From Syntrophaceae bacterium UBA4054 (GTDB lineage: Bacteria; Desulfobacterota; Syntrophia; Syntrophales; UBA4778): a stretch of 64,000 nt of DNA. The first letter of the stretch is position 1, and each line of letters begins with the position of its first letter. The stretch lies in the NCBI GenBank assembly GCA_002383495.1, contig DFZO01000050.1, positions 19,397 to 83,396 on the forward strand, written 5' to 3'. Below are positions 15,089-25,426 of this stretch, piece by piece. The notes under the pieces are model-generated. The model saw nothing but the letters and a program-made list of their open reading frames with translations, was not told the DNA's origin and ran no database searches. Made by a program: the position numbers and the translations under genes.

Positions 15089-15408
15089 TTAGCTGTGTGA
15101 CACAGATAAAAATGTTTGTCAAGGGAAATATCAGAGGGATTCTTTTATTTTTTTAATCGCTTGAATACGTTGATATTTTAAGCATCACTTGCAGCAGGTT
15201 TTCATTGAGCTTTGTGAAAAAGTCCGTTCTCTCGAGGAGATAATTCTATTGACAGACCCGGAAGCATATGTTACGAGAAATTCGCTTTGAAATCGGTGAC
15301 TCATTCGATAAGCCGTGCGTGCAAAGAGCACGCTGGACGCGTATGCGGGCCGGGGTGTTTTTTTTGTGGCGTGATCGCAACTGTCCTTTAAGTAAAAAGG
15401 AGGAAGAG

Positions 15409-15795
15409 GTGACCCTTCGAGAGGTAAAAGAAATTCTAGATGCCGATATCATTGTCGGGGAGGATCAGCTGGACAAGGAAGTCCAGACGGCCTTCAGCGC
15501 CGATCTGATGAGTGATGTCCTTGCCTTCGCAACGGCAGGAAGCCTTCTCCTCACCGGTGTTACGAATCCCCAAGTCGTCCGGACGTCCGAGATTCTTGAT
15601 ATAGCGGCCATTATCATGGTCCGGGGCAAAAGACCTTCTCAGGAAACGGCTCAACTGGCACTGGAACTGAGGATCCCGATTCTTTCCACAAAATATATCC
15701 TTTTCGAGACCTCCGGGAGGCTTCATGCCAGGGGAATTGTCGGCTGTATCGTGAAGGTTGGTGACAGGAGCGATGTCCGAAGAGACAAAGTATGA
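15409..15795 (+). CDS. DRTGG-domain protein
   Basis: AFSADLMSDVLAF...LLLTGVTNPQVVRTSEILD...MVRGKRP; GTG start after AGGAGG. Confidence 0.85.
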   Translation: MTLREVKEILDADIIVGEDQLDKEVQTAFSADLMSDVLAFATAGSLLLTGVTNPQVVRTSEILDIAAIIMVRGKRPSQETAQLALELRIPILSTKYILFETSGRLHARGIVGCIVKVGDRSDVRRDKV

Positions 15796-16207
15796 TGGTC
15801 ATTTTGCCGTAGAGGGTGGTAATTTCCGGAATGCGGGCCAGGTATCGAGCAGGATCAAGAACATCCTCAAAGACCTGGGATGTGACAGCGATATGGTCAG
15901 AAGAGCCGCTATAGTTACCTACGAGGCGGAGATCAATATTGTTTCTTACGCGAGAAAAGGTCTGATCCATCTCCGCGCGAAACCAGACAGTGTCAGGATT
16001 GAGATCAGTGACGAAGGTCCGGGCATTGCCGATATCGAGCTGGCGATGCAGGAAGGTTATTCAACGGCCTCTCCGATTGTCAGGGAAATGGGGTTCGGGG
16101 CCGGGATGGGACTCGCGAACATGAAAAGGTTCTCCGATAATTTCAGCATAACGTCCAGGGTCAATGAAGGTACGCAAGTGGTCATGCAAATTGACCAGGT
16201 TCACTGA
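15773..16207 (+). CDS. RsbT-like anti-sigma factor / Ser-Thr kinase (HATPase_c)
   Basis: YEAEINIV (N-box), ISDEGPGI (D/G1 box), GFGAGMGL (G2 box); CAGGAG RBS before ATG 15773. Confidence 0.88.
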   Translation: MSEETKYDGHFAVEGGNFRNAGQVSSRIKNILKDLGCDSDMVRRAAIVTYEAEINIVSYARKGLIHLRAKPDSVRIEISDEGPGIADIELAMQEGYSTASPIVREMGFGAGMGLANMKRFSDNFSITSRVNEGTQVVMQIDQVH

Positions 16208-16227
16208 TTCGCTGAACGCGGGGTGAA

Positions 16228-16563
16228 ATGAATCTGGAACTGATTGTCGAATCATTGAAGCTGAGGGTCCGGTACGGCGCGAAGAACCTCAAAAGGGAAG
16301 TCACGGGCGGCTTCGTGGGAGACCTTTTGAGCGATGTCATCGCCAACAGCCAGGAAGGGAATGTCTGGATCACGAGACAGATCCATCAGAATATTATTGC
16401 TGTCGCGAGCCTGAAGGAAATCGCGGGGATCGTCCTTGTTCAGGGGAGCGAGCCTGCGGCGGAGACGCTTGCCAGGGCTGAACAGGAGGGGATTCCTCTC
16501 CTGGTGTCCGATCTCCCGGGGTTCGAGGTGGCCGGCAGGATATACAAGATGTTGAACCCGTAA
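16228..16563 (+). CDS. DRTGG-domain (HPr-kinase N-terminal-like) protein
   Basis: VTGGFVGDLLSDVIAN...VWITRQIHQNIIAVASLKE. Confidence 0.82.
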   Translation: MNLELIVESLKLRVRYGAKNLKREVTGGFVGDLLSDVIANSQEGNVWITRQIHQNIIAVASLKEIAGIVLVQGSEPAAETLARAEQEGIPLLVSDLPGFEVAGRIYKMLNP

Positions 16564-16706
16564 GTCCGCCGGATGTGAACGATCAGGCACGGACAAGGTG
16601 AGTTGAATACAGCGCAGGGTCTTTTGAGCCGGATTTTCGGATCCTTCGGTTCCGGAAAGTTTCTGCAGGCAGGGGAAGGTTCATTGGTGTTCAGGGTAAG
16701 AAAACG

Positions 16707-17444
16707 ATGCTTAAGGAGTTTCGTTGCGATCTCCATATCCATACATGCCTTTCACCTTGTGCCGACTTGGAAATGTATCCAAGGGCCATCGTCGCAAAGT
16801 CCCTGGAAGAGCGATTGGATGTAATCGCTGTCTGTGATCACAACTCGTCCGAAAATGTTATTCATGTCGTCAACGCGGCCCGGGGGACGCGTCTTAAGAT
16901 CCTCCCTGGAATGGAGATATCGAGCCGCGAGGAGGTTCACCTCGTGGCGCTCTTTGATAAATTGGATGAATTGTTGAAGCTCCAGAATTGGATTTACGAT
17001 CATCTTCCAGGAAAAAATGAGGAATCCGTTTTTGGCTGCCAGGCCGTCGTTAACGAACTCGATGAGGTGGAGGGTTTTAACGAGAGGCTCCTCATCGGGG
17101 CGGCGGAACTTTCGATTGATGAAATCGTAGCAAATGTTCATGAGCTTGGAGGGCTTGCCGTGGCTTCTCATATTGACCGGCAGGGATTCGGGATCATCGG
17201 TCATCTCGGTTTCATCCCTCCCGATCTTCGCCTGGATGCCCTGGAGGTTTCAGTAAGGATGGGCCTGAAGGAGGCTCGGAAGGAATTCGCCGAGCTTTAC
17301 CGGATGGCCTTCATTGAGGCGTCGGATGCCCATTTCATCAGGGATATCGGAAGGGGGTCGACACGGTTCCTGCTCGAGGACGCGACCGTGAAAGAATTGA
17401 GAATGGCTTTCCGGAAGCAGCGGGGCCGGCTTGTTCTGGAGTGA
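16707..17444 (+). CDS. PHP-domain metal-dependent phosphoesterase
   Basis: DLHIHT, CDHN, EVHLV, ASHIDR and SDAH metal-ligand motifs. Confidence 0.88.
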   Translation: MLKEFRCDLHIHTCLSPCADLEMYPRAIVAKSLEERLDVIAVCDHNSSENVIHVVNAARGTRLKILPGMEISSREEVHLVALFDKLDELLKLQNWIYDHLPGKNEESVFGCQAVVNELDEVEGFNERLLIGAAELSIDEIVANVHELGGLAVASHIDRQGFGIIGHLGFIPPDLRLDALEVSVRMGLKEARKEFAELYRMAFIEASDAHFIRDIGRGSTRFLLEDATVKELRMAFRKQRGRLVLE

Positions 17445-17447
17445 GGC

Positions 17448-17999
17448 ATGCTGGAATTATCTCTTCATATCCTGGACATCGCTGAGAACTCAACAAGGGC
17501 CGGTGCGAAGACGGTCTGGATCGACATTGTGGAGGATCAGGAGAAAGACAGGTTAACCATTGAGATCAGAGATGATGGAGAAGGAATGGATCAGGAGACG
17601 CTCAGAAAGGCCCTTGATCCTTTTTTCACGTCCAAGAAAGTCCGGCGGGTCGGTCTGGGACTTCCGATGCTGGCCGAAGCGGCGGGGAGAACGGGCGGCC
17701 GTTTCGAGATCAAATCAACCGTCGGTGCCGGGACGCAGGTCCGGGTGGAATTCCGGCACAGCCACATCGACCGCCAGCCTCTCGGGGATATCCCCGGAAC
17801 CTTTATGGCTCTGATCGCGGGAAATCCGCAGGTGAACTTTGAATACCGTCACCGGAAGGGAAGCGGGATCTTCGTGCTCGATACAGCCGAGATCCGGAAG
17901 GAGCTTGACGGTGTTCCCATCAATCACACGGATGTGCTCCATTTCCTGCGGAACATGATCCGGGAGGGGTTGGAGGAGATCGGCGTGACGAACCATTGA
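17448..17999 (+). CDS. Stand-alone HATPase_c (histidine-kinase-like ATP-binding) protein
   Basis: LDIAENS, IRDDGEGM, DPFFTSK, VGLGLP; no sensor domain. Confidence 0.85.
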   Translation: MLELSLHILDIAENSTRAGAKTVWIDIVEDQEKDRLTIEIRDDGEGMDQETLRKALDPFFTSKKVRRVGLGLPMLAEAAGRTGGRFEIKSTVGAGTQVRVEFRHSHIDRQPLGDIPGTFMALIAGNPQVNFEYRHRKGSGIFVLDTAEIRKELDGVPINHTDVLHFLRNMIREGLEEIGVTNH

Positions 18000-18069: not shown

Positions 18070-18555
18070 ATGAGTGAAGACCTTTTAAAAGAGTTCAGTC
18101 CGGAACAGGTCGCGAAACTGGACGCCATCATTGACAAATTCAGGGGGAAGCCGGGATCGCTGATCCCGGTGCTCGAGGAAGCCCAGGTGGCCCTTGAATT
18201 CATTCCCATGGCCGTTCAGAAGCGGATTGCCGCGGGATTGAATATCCCTCTGGCCCAGGTTTACGGGGTCGTGACATTCTATTCCTTTTTCACCATGACC
18301 CCCCGGGGCAAGCATACCGTCCGGGTCTGCCTGGGCACGGCCTGCTATGTCCGGGGAGGCAAGACCATCGCGGAGAGCCTGGAGAAAGAGTTCGGCATCA
18401 AGGAAGGGGAAACCACGCCGGACAGAATGTTCACCTATGAGTCCGTGAGGTGTCTCGGCGCCTGCGGTCTTGCGCCGGTGATAGTCATAGACGAGAATGT
18501 CCATGGAAAGCAGAAACCGGCCAAACTCAAAGAAGTCGTTGGACAGTATAACTGA
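18070..18555 (+). CDS. NuoE/HndA/HydC-like [2Fe-2S] subunit
   Basis: VCLGTACYVRG and VRCLGACGLAP. Confidence 0.93.
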   Translation: MSEDLLKEFSPEQVAKLDAIIDKFRGKPGSLIPVLEEAQVALEFIPMAVQKRIAAGLNIPLAQVYGVVTFYSFFTMTPRGKHTVRVCLGTACYVRGGKTIAESLEKEFGIKEGETTPDRMFTYESVRCLGACGLAPVIVIDENVHGKQKPAKLKEVVGQYN

Positions 18556-18573: not shown

Positions 18574-18957
18574 ATGGCGAAGATAAAGATAGAAGACTTG
18601 AAGAAGATCAAGGAGAAGATTCAGGCGGAGACCTCCCTGAGGGCAGGGGATCGGCGGGTAAAGGTGACGGTCCACATGGGGACCTGCGGCATCGCGTCCG
18701 GTGCGCGCGGGGTTCTCGATGCCCTGATGGCCGAGATCGCCGAATCGGGCGCCAAGGATATCGCCGTGACCACATCGGGCTGCATGGGACTCTGCAGCCG
18801 GGAACCCCTGGTGACGGTCGAGGTCCTGGATCAGGATCCCATTAAATACGAATACATGAATCCCAACAAGATGAGGCAGGTCTTCAAGAGGCACATCCTG
18901 CAGGGCGAGATTCAGACTCCCTTCGTGCTTGCCAAGGGTGCGGAGATCGTAAAATAG
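18574..18957 (+). CDS. Thioredoxin-like [2Fe-2S] ferredoxin (HndB/HydD-like)
   Basis: HMGTCGIASGA and SGCMGLCSREP. Confidence 0.88.
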   Translation: MAKIKIEDLKKIKEKIQAETSLRAGDRRVKVTVHMGTCGIASGARGVLDALMAEIAESGAKDIAVTTSGCMGLCSREPLVTVEVLDQDPIKYEYMNPNKMRQVFKRHILQGEIQTPFVLAKGAEIVK

Positions 18958-19000: not shown

Positions 19001-22000
19001 ATGAAGATATATCGATCACATTTATTGATCTGTGGAGGGACGGGATGCCATGCCTCCGGGAGCCTCGCTGTAAAGAAGGTCCTGGTTGAGGAGCTGGACA
19101 AGAGAGGTCTTGCCGAGGAGATTAAAATCGTCGAGACCGGGTGCAATGGATTCTGCGCCCAGGGCCCCATCATGGTGGTCTATCCCGAAGGGATCGTCTA
19201 CATGCAGATCAAAACAGAGGATGTTCCGGAACTCGTGGAAGAACATTTCGTCAAGGGCCGGCCGCTGGCGCGGCTGTTCTACAAGGAACCCACCACGGAA
19301 GAGAAGATTCCCACGATGCAGGAGATCCCTTTCTTTGCCCATCAGGAATTGCGGGTGTTGAGAAACAGGGGGCTCATTGATCCGGAGAACATTGAGGAAT
19401 ATATAGCGAGAGACGGTTATGCGGGCATGGCCAAGGCCCTGACCGAGATGTCTGCCGATGATATCGTCAAGGAAGTGCTTGCGTCGGGACTCCGGGGAAG
19501 GGGCGGCGCGGGCTTCCCCACGGGGATGAAGTGGCAGTTTGCCTCCCGGTCCATGGGAGACATGAAATACGTGCTGTGCAATGCCGACGAGGGTGACCCC
19601 GGGGCCTTCATGGACCGCAGCGTCCTGGAGGCGGATCCCCATTCCGTAATCGAAGGCATGGTCATCGCCGCCAAGGCTATCGGCTCTCCTCAAGGTTATA
19701 TTTACTGCCGCGCGGAATATCCCCTGGCCATTCACCGGATGAATATCGCCCTCGACCAGGCAAGGGAATTCGGGCTTATCGGAAAAAATATCCTGGATAC
19801 GGGATTTAACTTCGATATCGAAATTTATCAGGGCGCGGGCGCTTTTGTTTGCGGGGAAGAGACGGCTCTCATGACCTCCATTGAAGGGAAGCGCGGGATG
19901 CCCAGACCGAGACCCCCATTTCCAGCCATTTCAGGCTTGTGGGGGAAACCAAGCATCCTCAATAACGTGGAGACCCTGGCCAATATCGGCCAGATCATCC
20001 TGAGAGGGGGCGCCTGGTATGCCAGCGTAGGGACGGAGAAGAGCAAGGGAACCAAAGTCTTTGCGCTGACCGGTGATGTGAACAACGTGGGTCTCGTGGA
20101 AGTCCCCATGGGAACAACGTTGGGCACCATTGTCTATGAGATCGGCGGCGGCATTCCTGGAGGGAAAAGATTCAAGGCCGCGCAACTCGGCGGTCCTTCC
20201 GGCGGAATGATCCCTGTACAACATTTGAACGCGCCTATAGATTATGAGAAGGTCGCGGAATTGGGCGCCATCATGGGATCCGGCGGCATGATTGTTCTGA
20301 ACGAAGACAAGTGTGCGGTCGATATGGCGCGGTTCTTTATGGATTTCTGCCAGGATGAATCCTGCGGTAAATGCACTCCCTGCCGTGAAGGGACCAAGCG
20401 AATGCTTGATCTCCTCACCAATATATGCAGCGGTAAAGGCAAGGAAGGAGACATCGAACTGCTCGAGGGAATGGCGGCCCTGATCAAAGATTCCGCTCTC
20501 TGCGGGCTGGGACAGACCGCCCCGAATCCCGTATTGAGCACGATCCGCTATTTCCGCAACGAGTACGAAACCCATATCAGGGACAAGCGCTGCTCGGCCG
20601 TTGTTTGTTCGGCCCTCTTCAAATCGCCCTGCCAGCACACCTGTCCCGTGGGGATGGACGTGCCGTCCTATATCGCTCTGATCCGGGCGGGGCGTCTTGA
20701 GGATGCCTACAAGGTGATGATGAGAACGAATCCCTTCCCCTCCGTTTGCGGACGGGTCTGCGACCACAAATGCCAGTCCAAGTGCCGGCGGGGCATGCTC
20801 GATGAAGCCGTGGCTATCAAGTTCTTGAAACGGTTTATCTCGGACAATGCTCCAAGGCCGAAGATCGAACCGGTACCCGTGACGCGAAAAGAAAAGATCG
20901 GCGTCGTCGGGGCCGGGCCAGCCGGTCTCACGGCAGCAAGGGATCTCGCGAAACGGGGTTACAAGGTGGATGTCTTCGAGGAGCTTCCTACGCCCGGCGG
21001 CATGCTGGCCTGGGGCATTCCCTCTTACAGGCTTCCCCGCGAGATTCTGAATCGGGAAATTGACGACATCCGTCAGCTGGGCGTCGATATCCGCTGCAAT
21101 GTCCGGGTGGGCAAAGACATTCCCTTTGATAAATTCCTGAAAGAATACGATTATGTTTATCTTGCCCCCGGCGCTCACAAAAGCCAGAGGCTGGGCGTTG
21201 AGGGCGAAAAACTGAAAGGCGTTTACGGAGGCGTGGAGTTCCTGCGGGCATTCAACATGAACGAAGCGGCCTGGCTGAAGGGTGAAAGGAAGATCGGCAG
21301 CCGGGTGGCCGTAGTCGGCGGAGGAAACTCCGCCATCGATGCGGCCCGGACAGCGGCCCGACTGGGCGCCGACGTGACCATCCTTTACCGACGGCTCCGG
21401 GCGGACATGCCTGCAGCGGAAGAGGAAATCGTAGCCGCCGAACACGAGGGGATCAAGATCGAGTACCTGGTGGCCCCCACGAAACTGGTCGGAGAGGGCG
21501 GCAAGGTCACGGGGATCTCCTGCGAGCGGATGATCCTGGGCGATTTTGATTCCAGCGGAAGGCGAAGACCCGCTCCCGTGAAGGGCTCCGAATTCACCCT
21601 CAGCGTGGATGCCGTCATTGCCGCCATCGGGCAGACGCCCGATCTTTCCTTTGTTTCAGAAGGAAGCGGCGTCAAGGTCAACCGGTGGTCCTGCTTTGAT
21701 CTCGATGGTTTAAGCAAATCAAAGACGCTCCACGAGAAGGTTTACGCGGGAGGAGATGCCGTTACGGGTCCCGATACGGTGATCGGCGCCATTGCCGCCG
21801 GCCACCGGGCCGCCGAGGATATCGACCAGGCCATCCGGACGGCCAACGGTGAACCGCCCTACGCGGCACCGCCGACCGAGAACATCGTGATTCCCTTCGA
21901 AATCGACGAGGAGACGCAGGAGCGCCCACAGGCGGCCATGCCTGAACTCGATGCCCACGAAAGAAGGAAGAGTTTCATTGAAGTGGAGCTCGGCTACAGC

Positions 22001-22057
22001 AGTGAGGAGGCCTTCAAGGAAGCCTGTCGCTGCCTGCGCTGCGACGCAGAAATCTAG
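19001..22057 (+). CDS. NuoF/HydB-like NADH-FMN subunit fused to a GltD/NfnB-like FAD-NADP(H) oxidoreductase
   Basis: N-terminal Trx [2Fe-2S]; GLRGRGGAGFPTG; CNADEGDPGAFMDR; CGKCTPCREG. Then CQHTCP/CGRVCDHKCQSKC, GAGPAG, GGGNSA...YRR and a C-terminal CLRCD. Confidence 0.9.
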   Translation: MKIYRSHLLICGGTGCHASGSLAVKKVLVEELDKRGLAEEIKIVETGCNGFCAQGPIMVVYPEGIVYMQIKTEDVPELVEEHFVKGRPLARLFYKEPTTEEKIPTMQEIPFFAHQELRVLRNRGLIDPENIEEYIARDGYAGMAKALTEMSADDIVKEVLASGLRGRGGAGFPTGMKWQFASRSMGDMKYVLCNADEGDPGAFMDRSVLEADPHSVIEGMVIAAKAIGSPQGYIYCRAEYPLAIHRMNIALDQAREFGLIGKNILDTGFNFDIEIYQGAGAFVCGEETALMTSIEGKRGMPRPRPPFPAISGLWGKPSILNNVETLANIGQIILRGGAWYASVGTEKSKGTKVFALTGDVNNVGLVEVPMGTTLGTIVYEIGGGIPGGKRFKAAQLGGPSGGMIPVQHLNAPIDYEKVAELGAIMGSGGMIVLNEDKCAVDMARFFMDFCQDESCGKCTPCREGTKRMLDLLTNICSGKGKEGDIELLEGMAALIKDSALCGLGQTAPNPVLSTIRYFRNEYETHIRDKRCSAVVCSALFKSPCQHTCPVGMDVPSYIALIRAGRLEDAYKVMMRTNPFPSVCGRVCDHKCQSKCRRGMLDEAVAIKFLKRFISDNAPRPKIEPVPVTRKEKIGVVGAGPAGLTAARDLAKRGYKVDVFEELPTPGGMLAWGIPSYRLPREILNREIDDIRQLGVDIRCNVRVGKDIPFDKFLKEYDYVYLAPGAHKSQRLGVEGEKLKGVYGGVEFLRAFNMNEAAWLKGERKIGSRVAVVGGGNSAIDAARTAARLGADVTILYRRLRADMPAAEEEIVAAEHEGIKIEYLVAPTKLVGEGGKVTGISCERMILGDFDSSGRRRPAPVKGSEFTLSVDAVIAAIGQTPDLSFVSEGSGVKVNRWSCFDLDGLSKSKTLHEKVYAGGDAVTGPDTVIGAIAAGHRAAEDIDQAIRTANGEPPYAAPPTENIVIPFEIDEETQERPQAAMPELDAHERRKSFIEVELGYSSEEAFKEACRCLRCDAEI

Positions 22058-22117: not shown

Positions 22118-24817
22118 ATGAACAAAATCTTAATAACCATTGATGGAAGGCAGCTGGAGGCGAAGCCCGGCCAGACCATTCTGGAGGTGGCGAAGGAAAA
22201 CGGCATCTATATTCCGACCCTCTGCTATTATGCCGCCACGAGGGTGGTGGGCGCCTGCCGTGTCTGCGTGGTGGAAGTTGAAAATTCCAGAACGCTCGTG
22301 GCGTCCTGCGCCATGCCCGTGAGTCCCGGCATGGTGGTCAAGACGGATACGCCGAGAGTGAGAGAATCGCAGAAGCTGGTGGTGGAGCTTCTCTGGTCCG
22401 CGGGCGATCACAACTGCCTCGTCTGCGAATCCAACGGGCAGTGCGAGCTGCAGGATCTGATCTACTGGCTTAAGATCGAAAAGCCGAGGTTCAAGATCGA
22501 AGCGCCGGGATATCCCCTTGAGAAAACCAACACGATGATCCAGAGGGATCTCAACAAGTGCGTCCTCTGCGGCCGGTGCATCCGGGCCTGCAACGAGATC
22601 CAGGTCAACGAAGTGCTCGATTTCTTCGAGCGCGGATCGAAGATGAAAGTGGGACCCGCCTTTGACGCCGACTACATCGATTCAAACTGCGTCTTCTGCG
22701 GGGCCTGCGTGGACGCCTGCCCCACGGGCGCCATCGTCAACAAGCAGTCCCGGTTTGAGGGACGGCCGTGGGACCTGCAAAAGATTCGCACCACCTGCGG
22801 GTATTGCGGGGTAGGGTGCCAGATGGACCTCAATGTCTATGACGGCAAGGTTGTCAAAGTCACGGGGAACAAGGAATACGGTACTCCAAACCAGGGCAGC
22901 CTCTGCGTCAAGGGACGCTTCGGAATGGAATTCATCCATCATCCGAGCCGCCTGAAGACGCCGCTGATCAAACAGGCGAACGGTGAGTTCAAGGAGGCGG
23001 ACTGGGATGAGGCATACGACTTCATCGCCGGAAAATTGAAGTCGATCAAGAAGAAACACGGTGCTGACAGCCTGGCGGGGCTATCTTCGGCCCGGTGCAC
23101 CAATGAAGAAAATTATCTGTTTCAGAAATTCATGAGAACGGTGATCGGAACCAACAATGTCGATCACTGTGCCCGTCTCTGACACTCCTCCACGGTGGTC
23201 GGTCTGGCCACCGCATTCGGGAGTGGTGCTATGACGAATTCCATCGATGAGATCGAATTCGCCGATGTGATTTTTGCCATAGGGACCAACACGACGGAAA
23301 ACCATCCTGTGATCGGAAGCAAGGTCAAGAGGGCCGTCCGTTACCACGGCGCGAAACTCATCGTGGTCGATCCGAGGGACATCGCCCTGACCAAATATGC
23401 CGAGCTCTGGCTGCGTCCGAAAGCGGGCACCAACGTGGCCCTGGTCAACGGGATCATGAACGTGATCATTTCCGAGGATCTTCAGGCAAAGGATTATGTC
23501 AAAGAGCGCACGGAAGGCTTTGAGGCCATGAAGGCCGTGGTGGCGAAATTCACACCGGAACGCGTGGAGGAAATAACAGGCGTGCCCGCCGCGAATATCC
23601 GGGCCGCCGCCCGGCTCTACGCCAAGGCCGGCAAGGCGTCTATTCTTTACTGCATGGGCGTCACCCAGCATTCCACGGGGACGGACTCCGTCAAGAACGT
23701 AGCCAATCTCGCCATGCTCTGCGGGATGATGGGCATTGAGAGCGGCGGCGTGAATCCCCTGAGGGGACAGGGCAACGTCCAGGGCGCTTGCGATATGGGC
23801 TGCCTTCCCAATGTTTTTCCGGCTTATCAGAACGTCACGGTCGACGATAACCGGGCCAGATTCCAGAAGGCCTGGGGCGTCAAGCTTCCGGCCAACGTGG
23901 GCCTGACCATCGTGGAGATCATGAATGCCGCCCATAAGGGGGATATCAAGGGTCTTTACGTGATGGGCGAAAATCTCATGATGAGCGACCCGGATCTCCA
24001 TCATGTCGAGGAGGCCCTGAAGAATCTTGATCTCCTGGTCGTTCAGGACATTTTCCTCACGGAGACGGCGAAGTTCGCCCACGTGGTTCTTCCGGCGGCC
24101 TCTTTCGCTGAAAAGGACGGAACATTCAGCAATACGGAAAGGAGAGTCCAGCGGGTGAGAAAAGCGGTCGCTCCTCCGGGCATGGCAAAACCCGACTGGC
24201 AGATCCTCTCCGGGCTTTCCACGAAGATGGGATATCCCATGGCCTATGCGTCGCCCTCGGAGATCATGGACGAGATCCGCAAGGTGACGCCGAGCTACGC
24301 GGGCATTACCTACCGGAGGATCGAGAGGAGAGGCATTCAGTGGCCCTGTCCCAACACGGATCACCCGGGGACGAAATACCTGCATAGGGATCGGTTCTCG
24401 CGGGGGCTGGGTCTTTTCAGCGCCATTGATTACATCCCATCGGCGGAGCAGACGGACAAGGAGTATCCCCTGATCATGACGACGGGCCGCATCCTCTATC
24501 ATTACCACACGGGTACGATGACCCGCCTCGCCAGGGGCAGCATGGAGAGGTACCCGGAGAGCCTCGTGGAAATCAATCCCCGGGATGCGGAGCGATTCGG
24601 CATCGAGGATGAGAAGCTTGTAAAGGTGACCTCCCGAAGGGGAAGCGTGACCGCAAAAGCCTCTTTGACGGATCGTTCTCCCGAAGGGACGATCTTCATG
24701 AACTTCCACTTCAGGGAAGCGGCGGTCAATCTGCTGACGAATTCCGTCCTGGATCCGCTTGCGAAGATCCCGGAATACAAGGTATCGGCAGTCAGGATAG
24801 AAGCCGCCGGGGCATGA
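22118..24817 (+). CDS. fdhA: Selenocysteine-containing formate dehydrogenase alpha subunit (Mo/W-bisPGD) with N-terminal NuoG-like Fe-S domain
   Basis: ORFs 22118-23182 and 23195-24817 are in frame across TGA 23180-23182 in DHCARL-U-HSSTV (residue 355). Also CGYCGVGC...LCVKG and RGQGNVQG; SECIS follows the TGA. Confidence 0.93.
23194..23212 (+). promoter_or_regulatory. Bacterial SECIS element
   Basis: GGTGGTC-GGTCT-GGCCACC hairpin starting 11 nt after the in-frame TGA. Confidence 0.8.
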
Positions 24818-24925: not shown

Positions 24926-25426
24926 ATGGAAACCGTTATTGATGTTTTAAGGCATTCCGTTGTTTTTCAAAAACTGACCAATGAGCAGATCAAAAAGCTG
25001 GCGGCCATTGCCTCGTTTGAAACCCATCCCGCGGGAACGGTGCTCTACAAGGAGGGGGATCCCGCCGGCAAATTCTATATCGTGAAAGAGGGGAAAGTCA
25101 TACTGGACATGAAATGTGAAATGGATCCCCACACCGCTCCGAGACAGGTCACCGTGGATGTCATCACGAAAGGAGAATCCATGGGCTGGTCCGCCGTGGT
25201 GGATCCTTATATTTACACACTCAGCTGTCTGTGCATGGATTCGACAACGCTCGTTGCCGTTGACGCGGCCAAACTTCGGGAATTCATCGCCGAGGACCTT
25301 GCCCTGGGCTTTGAGGTCATGAGATCGATCGCAAAGCTGATCTCTTCCCGTCTCACCCACACGCGAGTGTTGCTGATTGGTGAACGGACCCTTGGTTTCA
25401 TGACGGAACAGACACAATACGCATAA
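24926..25426 (+). CDS. Cyclic-nucleotide-binding (Crp/Fnr sensory) domain protein without HTH
   Basis: LYKEGDPAGKFYIVKEGKV...GESMGWSAVV...YTLSCLC; 166 aa, ends after the C-helix. Confidence 0.85.
   Translation: METVIDVLRHSVVFQKLTNEQIKKLAAIASFETHPAGTVLYKEGDPAGKFYIVKEGKVILDMKCEMDPHTAPRQVTVDVITKGESMGWSAVVDPYIYTLSCLCMDSTTLVAVDAAKLREFIAEDLALGFEVMRSIAKLISSRLTHTRVLLIGERTLGFMTEQTQYA

Follow-up and report, generated by a model that had tools for sequence, protein, structure and literature searches.

The 64,000-nucleotide window analysed here, from Syntrophaceae bacterium UBA4054, encodes on its forward strand (19001..22057, stop codon included) a fusion flavoprotein of 1018 amino acids, P0001. Judged from its open frame, Pfam domains and PDB matches, it is a two-part chain in which a bifurcating-type HydB/BfuB (residues 1–541) continues into a complete GltD module (residues 543–1018), and by alignment this NfnA/StnC-type module replaces the ferredoxin-like domain carrying clusters B3/B4. 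The overall best explanation, to which we give an even chance, is a four-subunit formate dehydrogenase descended from the bifurcating HydABC/Bfu enzymes, with NADP(H) in the place of ferredoxin. The first-pass annotation had described a single reading frame with a series of motifs, and each of them was located in the translation.

An AGGAGG lies just ahead of the P0001 frame. In the N-terminal half, Pfam recognized 2Fe-2S_thioredx (residues 6–81), Complex1_51K (161–329), SLBB (353–402) and NADH_4Fe-4S (441–525), and in the C-terminal half Fer4_20 (529–617) and Pyr_redox_2 (633–934). The chain begins with a thioredoxin-like [2Fe-2S] domain at 19016..19243, assigned to cluster B5, with C11, C16, C48 and C52. 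The FMN/NAD(H) and SLBB domains at 19481..20206 contain GRGGAGFPTG, GDPGAFMDR (198–206), KVFAL (352–356) and GGPSGG (397–402), and are followed by a four-helix domain at 20321..20575 (NADH_4Fe-4S, E 1e-35) with C455, C458, C461 and C501 for the [4Fe-4S] cluster B1, which is N3 in complex I.

Conservation was assessed in an alignment of 25 fusion sequences, down to 62% identity. The marks A202/M204, F354 and G397–G401 are invariant in it, as are the FMN, FAD and NADP-fold motifs and the cluster ligands including K610; GRGGAGFPTG and the four cysteines of each of the B5 and B1 sites are invariant or at least 90% conserved. Losey et al. 2020 (PMC7311640) distinguish bifurcating beta subunits by three correlative marks, Ala/Glu-x-Met at the NADH site, Phe near FMN and GGPSG in the SLBB region, in agreement with what the first-pass annotation had stated for AFM/F/GGPSG. 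Its assignment of the NuoF half to the bifurcating (Bfu) type is likewise borne out by these marks, by the HydB/BfuB matches and by the N-terminal [2Fe-2S] domain. The AlphaFold2 model built from the same alignment is poor (mean pLDDT 68.7, pTM 0.54, with the NuoF half below 50).

The position of the break is defined by PDB sequence searches. Residues 1–541 match HydB/BfuB of bifurcating hydrogenases and Nfn-Bfu (E 1e-242 to 1e-184), and residues 541–1015 match NfnA 101–567 (9bov_A, E 2e-115) and StnC (8oh5_C). The alignments to 7q4v_B, 8oh5_B, 9bov_B and 7t2r_B all end at the HIRDKRCSAVVC linker (20573..20608), a His/Cys motif specific to Bfu-type HydB that probably provides the ligands of zinc site B2. 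It aligns with HIRDKKCPAxxC of HydB chains of solved structure, and H525, C531 and C536 are invariant among the 25 fusion sequences. In canonical relatives, whose NuoF half is 58–66% identical, this linker is followed by CxxCxxCxxxCP twice, corresponding to clusters B3/B4, whereas P0001 continues with PCQHTCP of the GltD module; the distance from the linker to the first cluster ligand is 7 residues in P0001 and 12 in canonical HydB. With HydB homology stopping at residue 541, a full GltD module does stand where HydB normally has its 2x[4Fe-4S] domain, as had been noticed from the letters. The B3/B4 domain is the ferredoxin-reducing end of Bfu enzymes, reached via the moving C1 domain (PMC11829005; PMC12018979), and the family definition of Schut et al. 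2022 treats it as absolutely conserved (PMC9304861). No ferredoxin-like domain or ferredoxin gene was found elsewhere in the P0001 operon by Pfam or among its open reading frames. The earlier suggestion that ferredoxin might also be used is therefore weakened, because the replaced part is the only domain of this enzyme family known to reduce ferredoxin.

The GltD module itself (20627..22054), delimited by Pfam, PDB alignment, conservation and motif positions, is of the permuted NfnA/StnC type. It contains two [4Fe-4S] sites (C544, C548, C583, C587, C591, C595, K610, C1011 and C1014), an FAD fold with GAGPAG (637–642), an NADP(H) fold with GGGNSA (773–778) and YRR (796–798), and a C-terminal RCLRC tail. 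Over 475 residues aligned with 9bov_A and 8oh5_C, RCLRC falls on RCLEC of NfnA/StnC; K610 falls on K170 of these proteins, where NfnL has Glu. Such a Lys-liganded cluster beside FAD is characteristic of the NADPH-input module of Stn/NfnABC, which is non-bifurcating (PMC10482914). The label GltD/NfnB-like thus holds as far as GltD is concerned, but the module is the permuted, lysine-liganded one and not the NfnB of NfnSL. GGGNSAIDAAR...LYRR aligns with the equivalent motif of NADPH-using NfnA, StnC, NfnL and GltD, and GxGxxA has been interpreted as NADP(H)-binding in StnC (PMC7483475). The GltD half accordingly fits the NADP(H)-type motif pattern, GxGxxA and then YRR after beta-2; that GGGNxA with YRR would indicate NADP(H) had been proposed at the outset, and the pattern is common to NADPH-using NfnA, StnC and NfnL. 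Two nucleotide/flavin sites in one chain had also been proposed, and both are intact and conserved among the 25 sequences.

All genes around P0001 described here lie on the forward strand. Pfam identified a five-gene regulatory cassette at 15268..17999, consisting of DRTGG (15268–15795), a kinase-like HATPase_c_2 (15758–16207), a second DRTGG (16228–16563), PHP (16707–17444) and HATPase_c (17448–17999); nearly all related loci have it, in identical order, ahead of the fusion, and Firmicutes loci have it ahead of hydABC. It is followed at 18070..18555 by a NuoE/HydC/BfuC-like subunit of 161 amino acids with a thioredoxin-like [2Fe-2S] domain (2Fe-2S_thioredx, E 1.6e-49), the C1 carrier, which lies upstream of the fusion in all loci extending that far and whose identity is 63–80% in Syntrophales fusion loci and 47–67% in three outliers. 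The next gene (18574..18957) encodes 127 amino acids with only three cysteines, so that cluster binding is uncertain. Pfam gave no match for this small subunit, and it was recognized as HndB/HydD-like from its homologues, which lie directly upstream of HydB both in fusion loci and in Firmicutes hydABC loci.

Downstream of P0001, the frame at 22118..24817 encodes an FdhA of 899 amino acids if TGA at 23180–23182 is read as selenocysteine U355 (DHCARLUH). A NuoG-type N-terminus with [2Fe-2S] and [4Fe-4S] clusters, the [2Fe-2S] domain standing directly before NADH-G_4Fe-4S_3, is followed by Mo/W-bisPGD domains (Molybdop_Fe4S4, Molybdopterin and Molydop_binding in Pfam). The protein has U355-H356 and the arginine motif of formate dehydrogenases, its best PDB match is FdsA (6tg9_A, E 2.5e-235), and the in-frame TGA is common to the homologous FdhA loci. 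Directly 3' of the UGA, folding predicted a SECIS-like hairpin at 23183..23226 (−28.9 kcal/mol and z = −2.5 for 23174–23245). By these sequence criteria the neighbour of P0001 is a genuine selenocysteine metal-dependent formate dehydrogenase of the FdhF/FdsA type.

A census of the domain architecture, which the first-pass annotation had named as a check, covered 151 Syntrophales genomes of 62 genera and found P0001 orthologues in 113 genomes and 53 genera. Full-length members 78–94% identical to P0001 occur in more than 120 protein clusters (90% identity), and the fused frame recurs in about 45 species genomes. A chimeric assembly or a chance fusion was rejected on this recurrence. The gene adjoining the fusion cassette varies: it is FdhA, an [FeFe]-hydrogenase HydA (in Smithella and other relatives) or neither. 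The description of P0001 as a formate dehydrogenase flavoprotein is thus right for its true selenocysteine FdhA neighbour, but the fusion is not specific to formate dehydrogenase. In at least five of eight genomes without an adjoining catalytic gene, a selenocysteine FdhA orthologue (70–75% identity) is found elsewhere; a sixth has an FdhA fragment (69%), and in one, three HydA-sized frames match the NuoG-like N-terminus only. A stand-alone NADH:NADP+ transhydrogenase at these loci was considered and rejected, since unlinked partners are the simpler reading. The source genome also has a canonical BfuB paralogue with B3/B4 (L082) and canonical NfnAB, suggesting that the fusion is an additional and distinct device.

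The nearest parts list is that of Nfn-Bfu/Stn (NfnABC of Caldicellulosiruptor saccharolyticus, 9bov; StnABC of Sporomusa ovata, 8oh5), which equals that of the P0001 system: a NuoE-like C1 subunit, a Bfu-type NuoF with FMN and B1 (NfnB/StnB match the NuoF half at about E 1e-194) and a permuted, Lys-liganded GltD module for FAD and NADPH. In those enzymes the GltD module is placed within the NuoG-like A subunit after a [2Fe-2S] domain, where it feeds the mid-potential branch, the FDH-like domain is a pterin-free remnant without an active site, and the B subunit retains B3/B4 for ferredoxin; in the P0001 system the module takes the place of B3/B4 at the C-terminal end of the B subunit, and a selenocysteine formate dehydrogenase serves as the A subunit. 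The operon layout matches that of Fdh-Bfu/FeFe-Bfu (HydABC/HydABCD, HylABC-Fdh; 7q4v, 8a6t, 7p5h), including the DRTGG/kinase/PHP cassette and the HndB/HydD-like gene, and the canonical BfuB proteins adjoining FdhA or HydA are the 58–66% identical relatives mentioned above, with P0001 having all bifurcating marks; P0001 differs in that it lacks B3/B4 and has an additional FAD site and a predicted NADP(H)-type site. Of the Bfu family features, the P0001 system has, by sequence, the BfuB core with the B1 and FMN sites, the B5 cysteines, the His/Cys linker and a separate BfuC, and lacks B3/B4. The FdsABG NAD+-dependent formate dehydrogenase (Rhodobacter capsulatus, 6tg9; Cupriavidus necator) follows the same NuoE/NuoF/NuoG-FDH logic, but FdsB is a non-bifurcating NuoF with no GGPSG, with Tyr for Phe, and without such an N-terminal [2Fe-2S] domain, zinc linker or GltD; the active-site residue of FdsA is Cys, compared with Sec in the FdhA beside P0001. 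NfnSL (NfnAB of Thermotoga maritima and Pyrococcus furiosus; 4ylf, 5jca) shares the GltD fold, two [4Fe-4S] sites and the NADPH motif (E 2e-106), but in NfnL the RCLxC segment is N-terminal, the proximal cluster has Glu and FAD is the bifurcating flavin, whereas in P0001 the segment is permuted to the C-terminal end and the ligand is Lys.

A junction like that of P0001 is present in the SfrB-type proteins P0207 and L083 (the latter from the source genome), in which NADH_4Fe-4S is followed by Fer4_20, Pyr_redox_2 and a C-terminal RCxRC tail, with about 37–43% identity to P0001 over residues 400–1014. They lack the FMN domain, the N-terminal [2Fe-2S] domain and a complete zinc linker, all three of which P0001 has. 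SfrAB of G. sulfurreducens is NADPH-dependent, as cited in PMC7483475. The L083 gene is flanked by a TPP-enzyme gene and a NuoG-N-terminal-like gene, and no NuoE gene was found within about 1.4 kb on either side. The early description of P0001 as analogous to, but rearranged from, the Stn/Sfr systems therefore fits: the parts of Stn/NfnABC are reordered, and the B1-GltD junction is also that of P0207.

We propose that P0001 is the beta (flavoprotein) subunit of a soluble selenocysteine formate dehydrogenase made of the NuoE-like subunit, the HndB-like subunit, P0001 and FdhA. By sequence it retains the whole Bfu core, that is B5, the FMN/NAD(H) site with its marks, B1, the zinc linker and the separate C1 subunit. 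By analogy of motifs, the complex is most likely a formate (or H2) oxidoreductase in which FMN is the site for NAD(H) and FAD that for NADP(H), the latter branch replacing ferredoxin. The built-in transhydrogenase activity suggested by the first-pass annotation is likewise a prediction. The 7-residue spacing after the zinc linker suggests that the GltD clusters probably lie about where B3/B4 are in canonical HydB, where the mobile C1 domain could feed them. If so, NADP+/NADPH would take ferredoxin's place as the third, lower-potential partner, in the reaction 2 formate + NAD+ + NADP+ <-> 2 CO2 + NADH + NADPH. Formate levels in syntrophy would favour the direction of CO2 reduction, with NADPH (about −380 mV) pulling NADH (about −280 mV), and in relatives the same flavoprotein cassette would serve the [FeFe]-hydrogenase likewise. 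A stricter version makes the enzyme a ferredoxin-free member of the Bfu family, in which the [B1-FMN-C1] site splits or merges electrons between the NAD and NADP pools with NADP(H) as the low-potential and formate/H2 as the middle partner; we put this forward only tentatively.

The same parts could also work as an uncoupled dual-input diaphorase, which we regard as possible but doubtful: NADH at FMN and NADPH at FAD with its two [4Fe-4S] clusters would independently exchange electrons with B1 and the FdhA chain, so that the formate dehydrogenase or hydrogenase takes either nucleotide and transhydrogenation is at most incidental and not energy-coupled. The SfrB-type junction, formed without an FMN domain, NuoE partner or zinc linker, counts here against our best explanation; it joins a B1-type domain directly to the same GltD module in P0207 and L083, and so suggests that the module can presumably pass electrons straight to a B1-type cluster, which would permit a simple, uncoupled NADPH input. 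The GltD module is a plain electron input in Stn/NfnABC as well (PMC11829005; PMC10482914), and since NADH and NADPH differ little in potential, there may not be much to gain from a bifurcation machine. Yet P0001 keeps all Bfu-specific features (B5, the zinc linker and A-x-M/F/GGPSG), which are missing from non-bifurcating NuoF, FdsB and HydB of S. aciditrophicus, its GltD module replaces exactly the low-potential exit domain, and linking the NADH and NADPH pools without coupling would run down the disequilibrium between them.

GltD-type [4Fe-4S] pairs reduce ferredoxin in NfnSL, and the annotation from the letters had left ferredoxin possible. A Stn-like NADH-dependent ferredoxin:NADP+ system joined to formate dehydrogenase, with four substrates, would need another docking site for ferredoxin, such as the HndB-like subunit or the space between the GltD clusters and the C-terminal domain of NuoE; NfnABC of T. 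sibiricus binds ferredoxin between the C-terminal domain of its C subunit and an Fd-like domain, with no dedicated pocket (PMC12018979). We consider such ferredoxin dependence unlikely, as B3/B4, the ferredoxin reducer in every characterised Bfu enzyme, is absent from P0001, the module has the non-bifurcating Lys ligand of Stn/NfnA and not the Glu of NfnL, and the genome has separate canonical NfnAB and BfuB. The HndB-like subunit was rejected as a substitute for B3/B4 because canonical HydB loci have it too. Less probable still, and in our view improbable, is a GltD half that binds no pyridine nucleotide productively and is a structural or regulatory remnant or passes electrons to something else, for instance polysulfide or Fe(III) chelates. 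Several in-vitro acceptors have been reported for GltD-like modules (SudA and SfrB, as cited in PMC7483475), but the FAD fold, GGGNxAIDAAR...YRR, the cluster ligands and RCLRC are invariant among orthologues that are 62–92% identical, which indicates that a catalytic module is under strong purifying selection. Separate nuoF and gltD genes joined by mis-assembly or a frame error would be an extremely improbable source of P0001, as an uninterrupted frame of about 1018 amino acids is present in hundreds of independent assemblies, closed chromosomes included.

We found no description of a HydB/NuoF-GltD fusion in the searchable literature, where absence is not proof of absence. The inventory of NuoF proteins of S. 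aciditrophicus comprises HydB, FdhB-2, FdhB-4 and three proteins assigned as BamH and reports no such fusion, and a recent comparative-genomics paper on Smithellaceae counts hydB and hnd genes with the extra module unmentioned. In current genome annotation, fusion genes bear the labels 'NuoF', 'HndC' or 'FAD-dependent oxidoreductase'.

Syntrophs have to transfer electrons uphill in potential from NADH to protons or CO2, and the accepted ways of doing so are confurcation driven by ferredoxin and the use of non-bifurcating enzymes where H2 or formate is very low. A bifurcating core with an NADPH-type module instead of the ferredoxin end, present in about three-quarters of the sampled Syntrophales genomes, suggests that there is a third way and that formate/H2 metabolism is tied directly to the NADPH pool. 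For enzymology, the fusion is a natural experiment on the Bfu mechanism, bearing on the requirements of a functional low-potential branch. If the ferredoxin-free Bfu reading is true, NADPH and not reduced ferredoxin would be co-oxidised with NADH when Syntrophales produce formate or H2. Flavin-based confurcation of this kind would form a new class and explain in a new way how NADH is reoxidised in syntrophs.

The first-pass annotation had described P0001, the 1018-aa product of an ORF at 19001–22057 on the + strand (AGGAGG upstream), as a fusion of a NuoF-type half with a GltD half, and this description, including the motifs it quoted, was true in every detail when Pfam domains and motifs were located on the protein. 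The domains 2Fe-2S_thioredx (residues 6–81), Complex1_51K (161–329), SLBB (353–402) and NADH_4Fe-4S (441–525) are followed by Fer4_20 (529–617) and Pyr_redox_2 (633–934); GDPGAFMDR lies at 198–206, KVFAL at 352–356, GGPSGG at 397–402, GGGNSA at 773–778 and YRR at 796–798. Its appeal to established marks of bifurcation is also correct: Ala/Glu-x-Met, Phe and GGPSG are given as features that tell bifurcating from non-bifurcating beta subunits by Losey et al. 2020 (PMC7311640). Across an alignment of 25 sequences, the most distant at 62% identity, all predicted ligands and nucleotide motifs were invariant or at least 90% conserved, namely C11/16/48/52, GRGGAGFPTG, A202/M204, F354 and GGPSGG in the NuoF half, C455/458/461/501 in the B1 region, H525/C531/C536 in the linker, the GltD cluster ligands C544/548/583/587/591/595, K610 and C1011/1014, and the GltD flavin/nucleotide motifs GxGPxGL, GGGNxAIDAAR and YRR. 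The AlphaFold model of P0001 was of poor quality.

Residues 1–541 match HydB/NfnB/StnB of the bifurcating Bfu enzymes end to end in solved structures (7t2r_B, E 1e-242; 7q4v_B, 8a6t_B, 8oh5_B, 9bov_B and 9n5u_B), and residues 541–1015 align with 101–567 of NfnA from the C. saccharolyticus NfnABC (9bov_A) and of StnC (8oh5_C). This second alignment also covers the final 40 residues, ...ERRKSFIEVELGY..EACRCLRCD, whose counterpart in the NfnSL large subunit (4ylf_B) sits at the N-terminus, indicating that the GltD module is circularly permuted, as in NfnA/StnC. The counterpart of K610 in NfnA/StnC is K170, which serves as an unusual lysine ligand to the FAD-adjacent cluster, whereas NfnL has a glutamate at this position. 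In Stn the lysine ligand is strictly conserved and activity depends on it, and the FAD of the module is described as non-bifurcating (PMC10482914). The break point between the halves is sharp. HydB homology extends through HIRDKRCSAVVC (525–536), a His/Cys linker specific to Bfu-type HydB, before which complex I NuoF homology ends. In canonical relatives (58–66% identity), the CxGCGxCxxxCP...CxxCxxCxxxC motif of clusters B3/B4 comes 12 residues past the second linker cysteine, whereas in P0001 the PCQHTCP of the GltD module comes 7 residues past the linker.

The P0001 gene belongs to a single long operon on the + strand of the window. Upstream are a five-gene cassette identified with Pfam (DRTGG, HATPase_c_2, DRTGG, PHP and HATPase_c; 15268–17999), a NuoE-like gene (18070–18555; Pfam 2Fe-2S_thioredx, E 1.6e-49) and a small HndB/HydD-like gene (18574–18957) with no Pfam match, whose product has only three cysteines (C38, C70 and C74), one short of the four ligands that a thioredoxin-like [2Fe-2S] fold requires. 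Downstream, the FdhA gene (22118–24817) is split by an in-frame TGA and encodes 899 aa when this is read as selenocysteine, giving DHCARL-U355-H in the active-site region; folding predicts a stable hairpin starting immediately downstream of the UGA (−28.9 kcal/mol, z −2.5). Among PDB structures, FdhA comes closest to Rhodobacter capsulatus FdsA (6tg9_A, E 2.5e-235); its own N-terminus is NuoG-type (Fer2_4, NADH-G_4Fe-4S_3 and 4Fe-4S dicluster), with no insertion in its Pfam domain map. The gene immediately past fdhA, also on the + strand, encodes a 166-aa cyclic-nucleotide-binding-domain protein (24926–25426).

The order of the DRTGG/HATPase_c_2/DRTGG/PHP/HATPase_c cassette is kept in nearly all fusion loci. 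Firmicutes hydABC loci also carry a DRTGG/HATPase/PHP cassette, but there extra genes are interleaved. In the window the cassette at least accompanies a formate dehydrogenase (FDH) rather than a hydrogenase, and control of the FDH is a possible role.

Clustering at 90% identity gave more than 120 protein clusters with full-length members 78–94% identical to P0001; those with a named source come from Syntrophales, Syntrophus gentianae (orthologue P0059, 79% identity), Syntrophaceae or Smithella, and the annotations go no further than NuoF, HndC, 'hydrogenase' or 'FAD-dependent oxidoreductase'. At 50%, about 10 full-length representative clusters (36–53% identity) were found, together with SfrB-type proteins of about 650 aa (NADH_4Fe-4S, Fer4_20 and Pyr_redox_2 by Pfam). 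Among species-representative genomes the fused frame occurs at about 45 loci, nearly all in Syntrophales, the others being one in Desulfatiglandales and two in deep-branching MAGs. In an even sample of 151 genomes of the window's order, searched with the GltD half, an orthologue (62–92% identity) was present in 113, in 92 of the 117 high-quality genomes and in 53 of 62 genera, sometimes in two copies; frames not cut by a contig end were about 1014–1170 aa, mostly 1018–1070. Two relatives of about 1040–1110 aa, P0135 and P0149, have degenerate FMN-site and B1 motifs, an intact GltD module and an additional C-terminal cysteine-rich ferredoxin-like tail, and their sequences suggest a branch of the same fusion that has decayed or been repurposed.

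Across loci, the upstream cassette, NuoE and HndB-like genes accompany the fusion, but the downstream gene varies. It is a selenocysteine FdhA in the window and Syntrophus-like loci. Smithella and the deepest branches have HydA at this place, a genuine [FeFe]-hydrogenase by its Fe_hyd_lg_C domain (E 1e-101 to 1e-105); a third set of loci has no relevant gene downstream. Mapped onto a maximum-likelihood tree built from the fusion proteins, the partner type requires at least nine changes. At least five of eight no-partner genomes checked carry an orthologous selenocysteine FdhA elsewhere (70–75% identity), in one case about 52 kb from the fusion on the same contig; a sixth has an FdhA fragment (69% identity), and one of the eight has three HydA-sized frames that match the NuoG-like N-terminus only. 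Given the varying linked partner and the FdhA encoded elsewhere in no-partner genomes, the flavoprotein trio is a conserved module serving either FDH or hydrogenase. At one MAG locus (L018:7463–11160), genes for a HydF-like GTPase and a radical-SAM-like maturase directly follow the fusion with no hydA between; that gene may have been lost or moved elsewhere.

In Bfu enzymes, electrons of the third substrate run via A-subunit clusters to the composite site [B1-FMN-C1], NAD+ accepts electrons at the FMN, and the C1-bearing C-terminal domain of the NuoE-like subunit swings to B3/B4, where ferredoxin is reduced (PMC11829005; PMC12018979). By sequence comparison P0001 keeps all Bfu features but B3/B4, and carries on the same zinc linker, via a shorter connector, an FAD module of the NADPH type that has two [4Fe-4S] sites. 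The GltD clusters would then lie roughly at the B3/B4 position and be served by C1, and NADP+/NADPH would take ferredoxin's place as third partner. Physiological potentials are about −280 mV for NADH, about −380 mV for NADPH and about −300 mV for CO2/formate at roughly 10 µM formate, so that NADH + NADPH -> 2 formate is feasible whereas the reaction with NADH alone is not. We hypothesize that the P0001 complex links NADH and NADPH to formate, NADP(H) standing in for ferredoxin.

The main alternative, an uncoupled dual input through B1, is plausible, because in SfrB-type proteins the same GltD module is attached to a B1-type domain, and FMN, NuoE partner and zinc linker are all absent. Less likely is an enzyme with four substrates that depends on ferredoxin, because the sole known ferredoxin-reducing domain, B3/B4, is exactly the part that was lost and the GltD module has the Lys ligand, not Glu. 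The enzyme probably works like a Bfu/Stn enzyme, with which it shares its building modules. It misses a defining feature of each named family: it is without the B3/B4 of Bfu, whose BfuBC cofactors were called absolutely conserved by Schut et al. (PMC9304861); unlike in Stn/NfnABC, its GltD module is in another subunit and its A subunit is, by sequence, a live FDH; unlike SfrAB, it has an FMN domain; and unlike FdsABG, it has the bifurcating-type marks and an extra module.

The window's genome (2.66 Mb, rated 100% complete) also encodes a second NuoG-type FdhA (C24:128517–131234), 52% identical to the window's selenocysteine FdhA and apparently, like it, a selenocysteine protein with an interrupted frame; it is flanked by two Tat-type periplasmic FDH operons with no NuoE/NuoF genes nearby, and may share one of the NuoEF modules as electron partner. 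Two GltD-type modules lie beside 2-oxoacid oxidoreductase genes. At L083 (C58, ~106.7–110.5 kb) the gene order is TPP-binding 2-oxoacid oxidoreductase beta-like, SfrB-type (636 aa, B1-type domain + GltD) and NuoG-N-terminal-like Fe-S protein (235 aa), which could be an NADPH-linked 2-oxoacid oxidoreductase; at L085 (C51), a second POR–GltD pairing, a POR alpha-like gene adjoins one for a GltD-like protein of 585 aa that bears a 4Fe-4S motif at its C-terminus. A canonical NfnAB pair is present, as are a canonical NuoE and a 628-aa BfuB (C52:20197–23220) that has B3/B4 as well as GGPSG and the A-x-M mark; after these comes just a 229-aa NuoG-N-terminal-like protein, with no adjacent catalytic subunit. 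Since canonical BfuB and NfnAB are both in the genome, the fusion does not make up for the loss of a Bfu or Nfn enzyme but is an additional device beside them.
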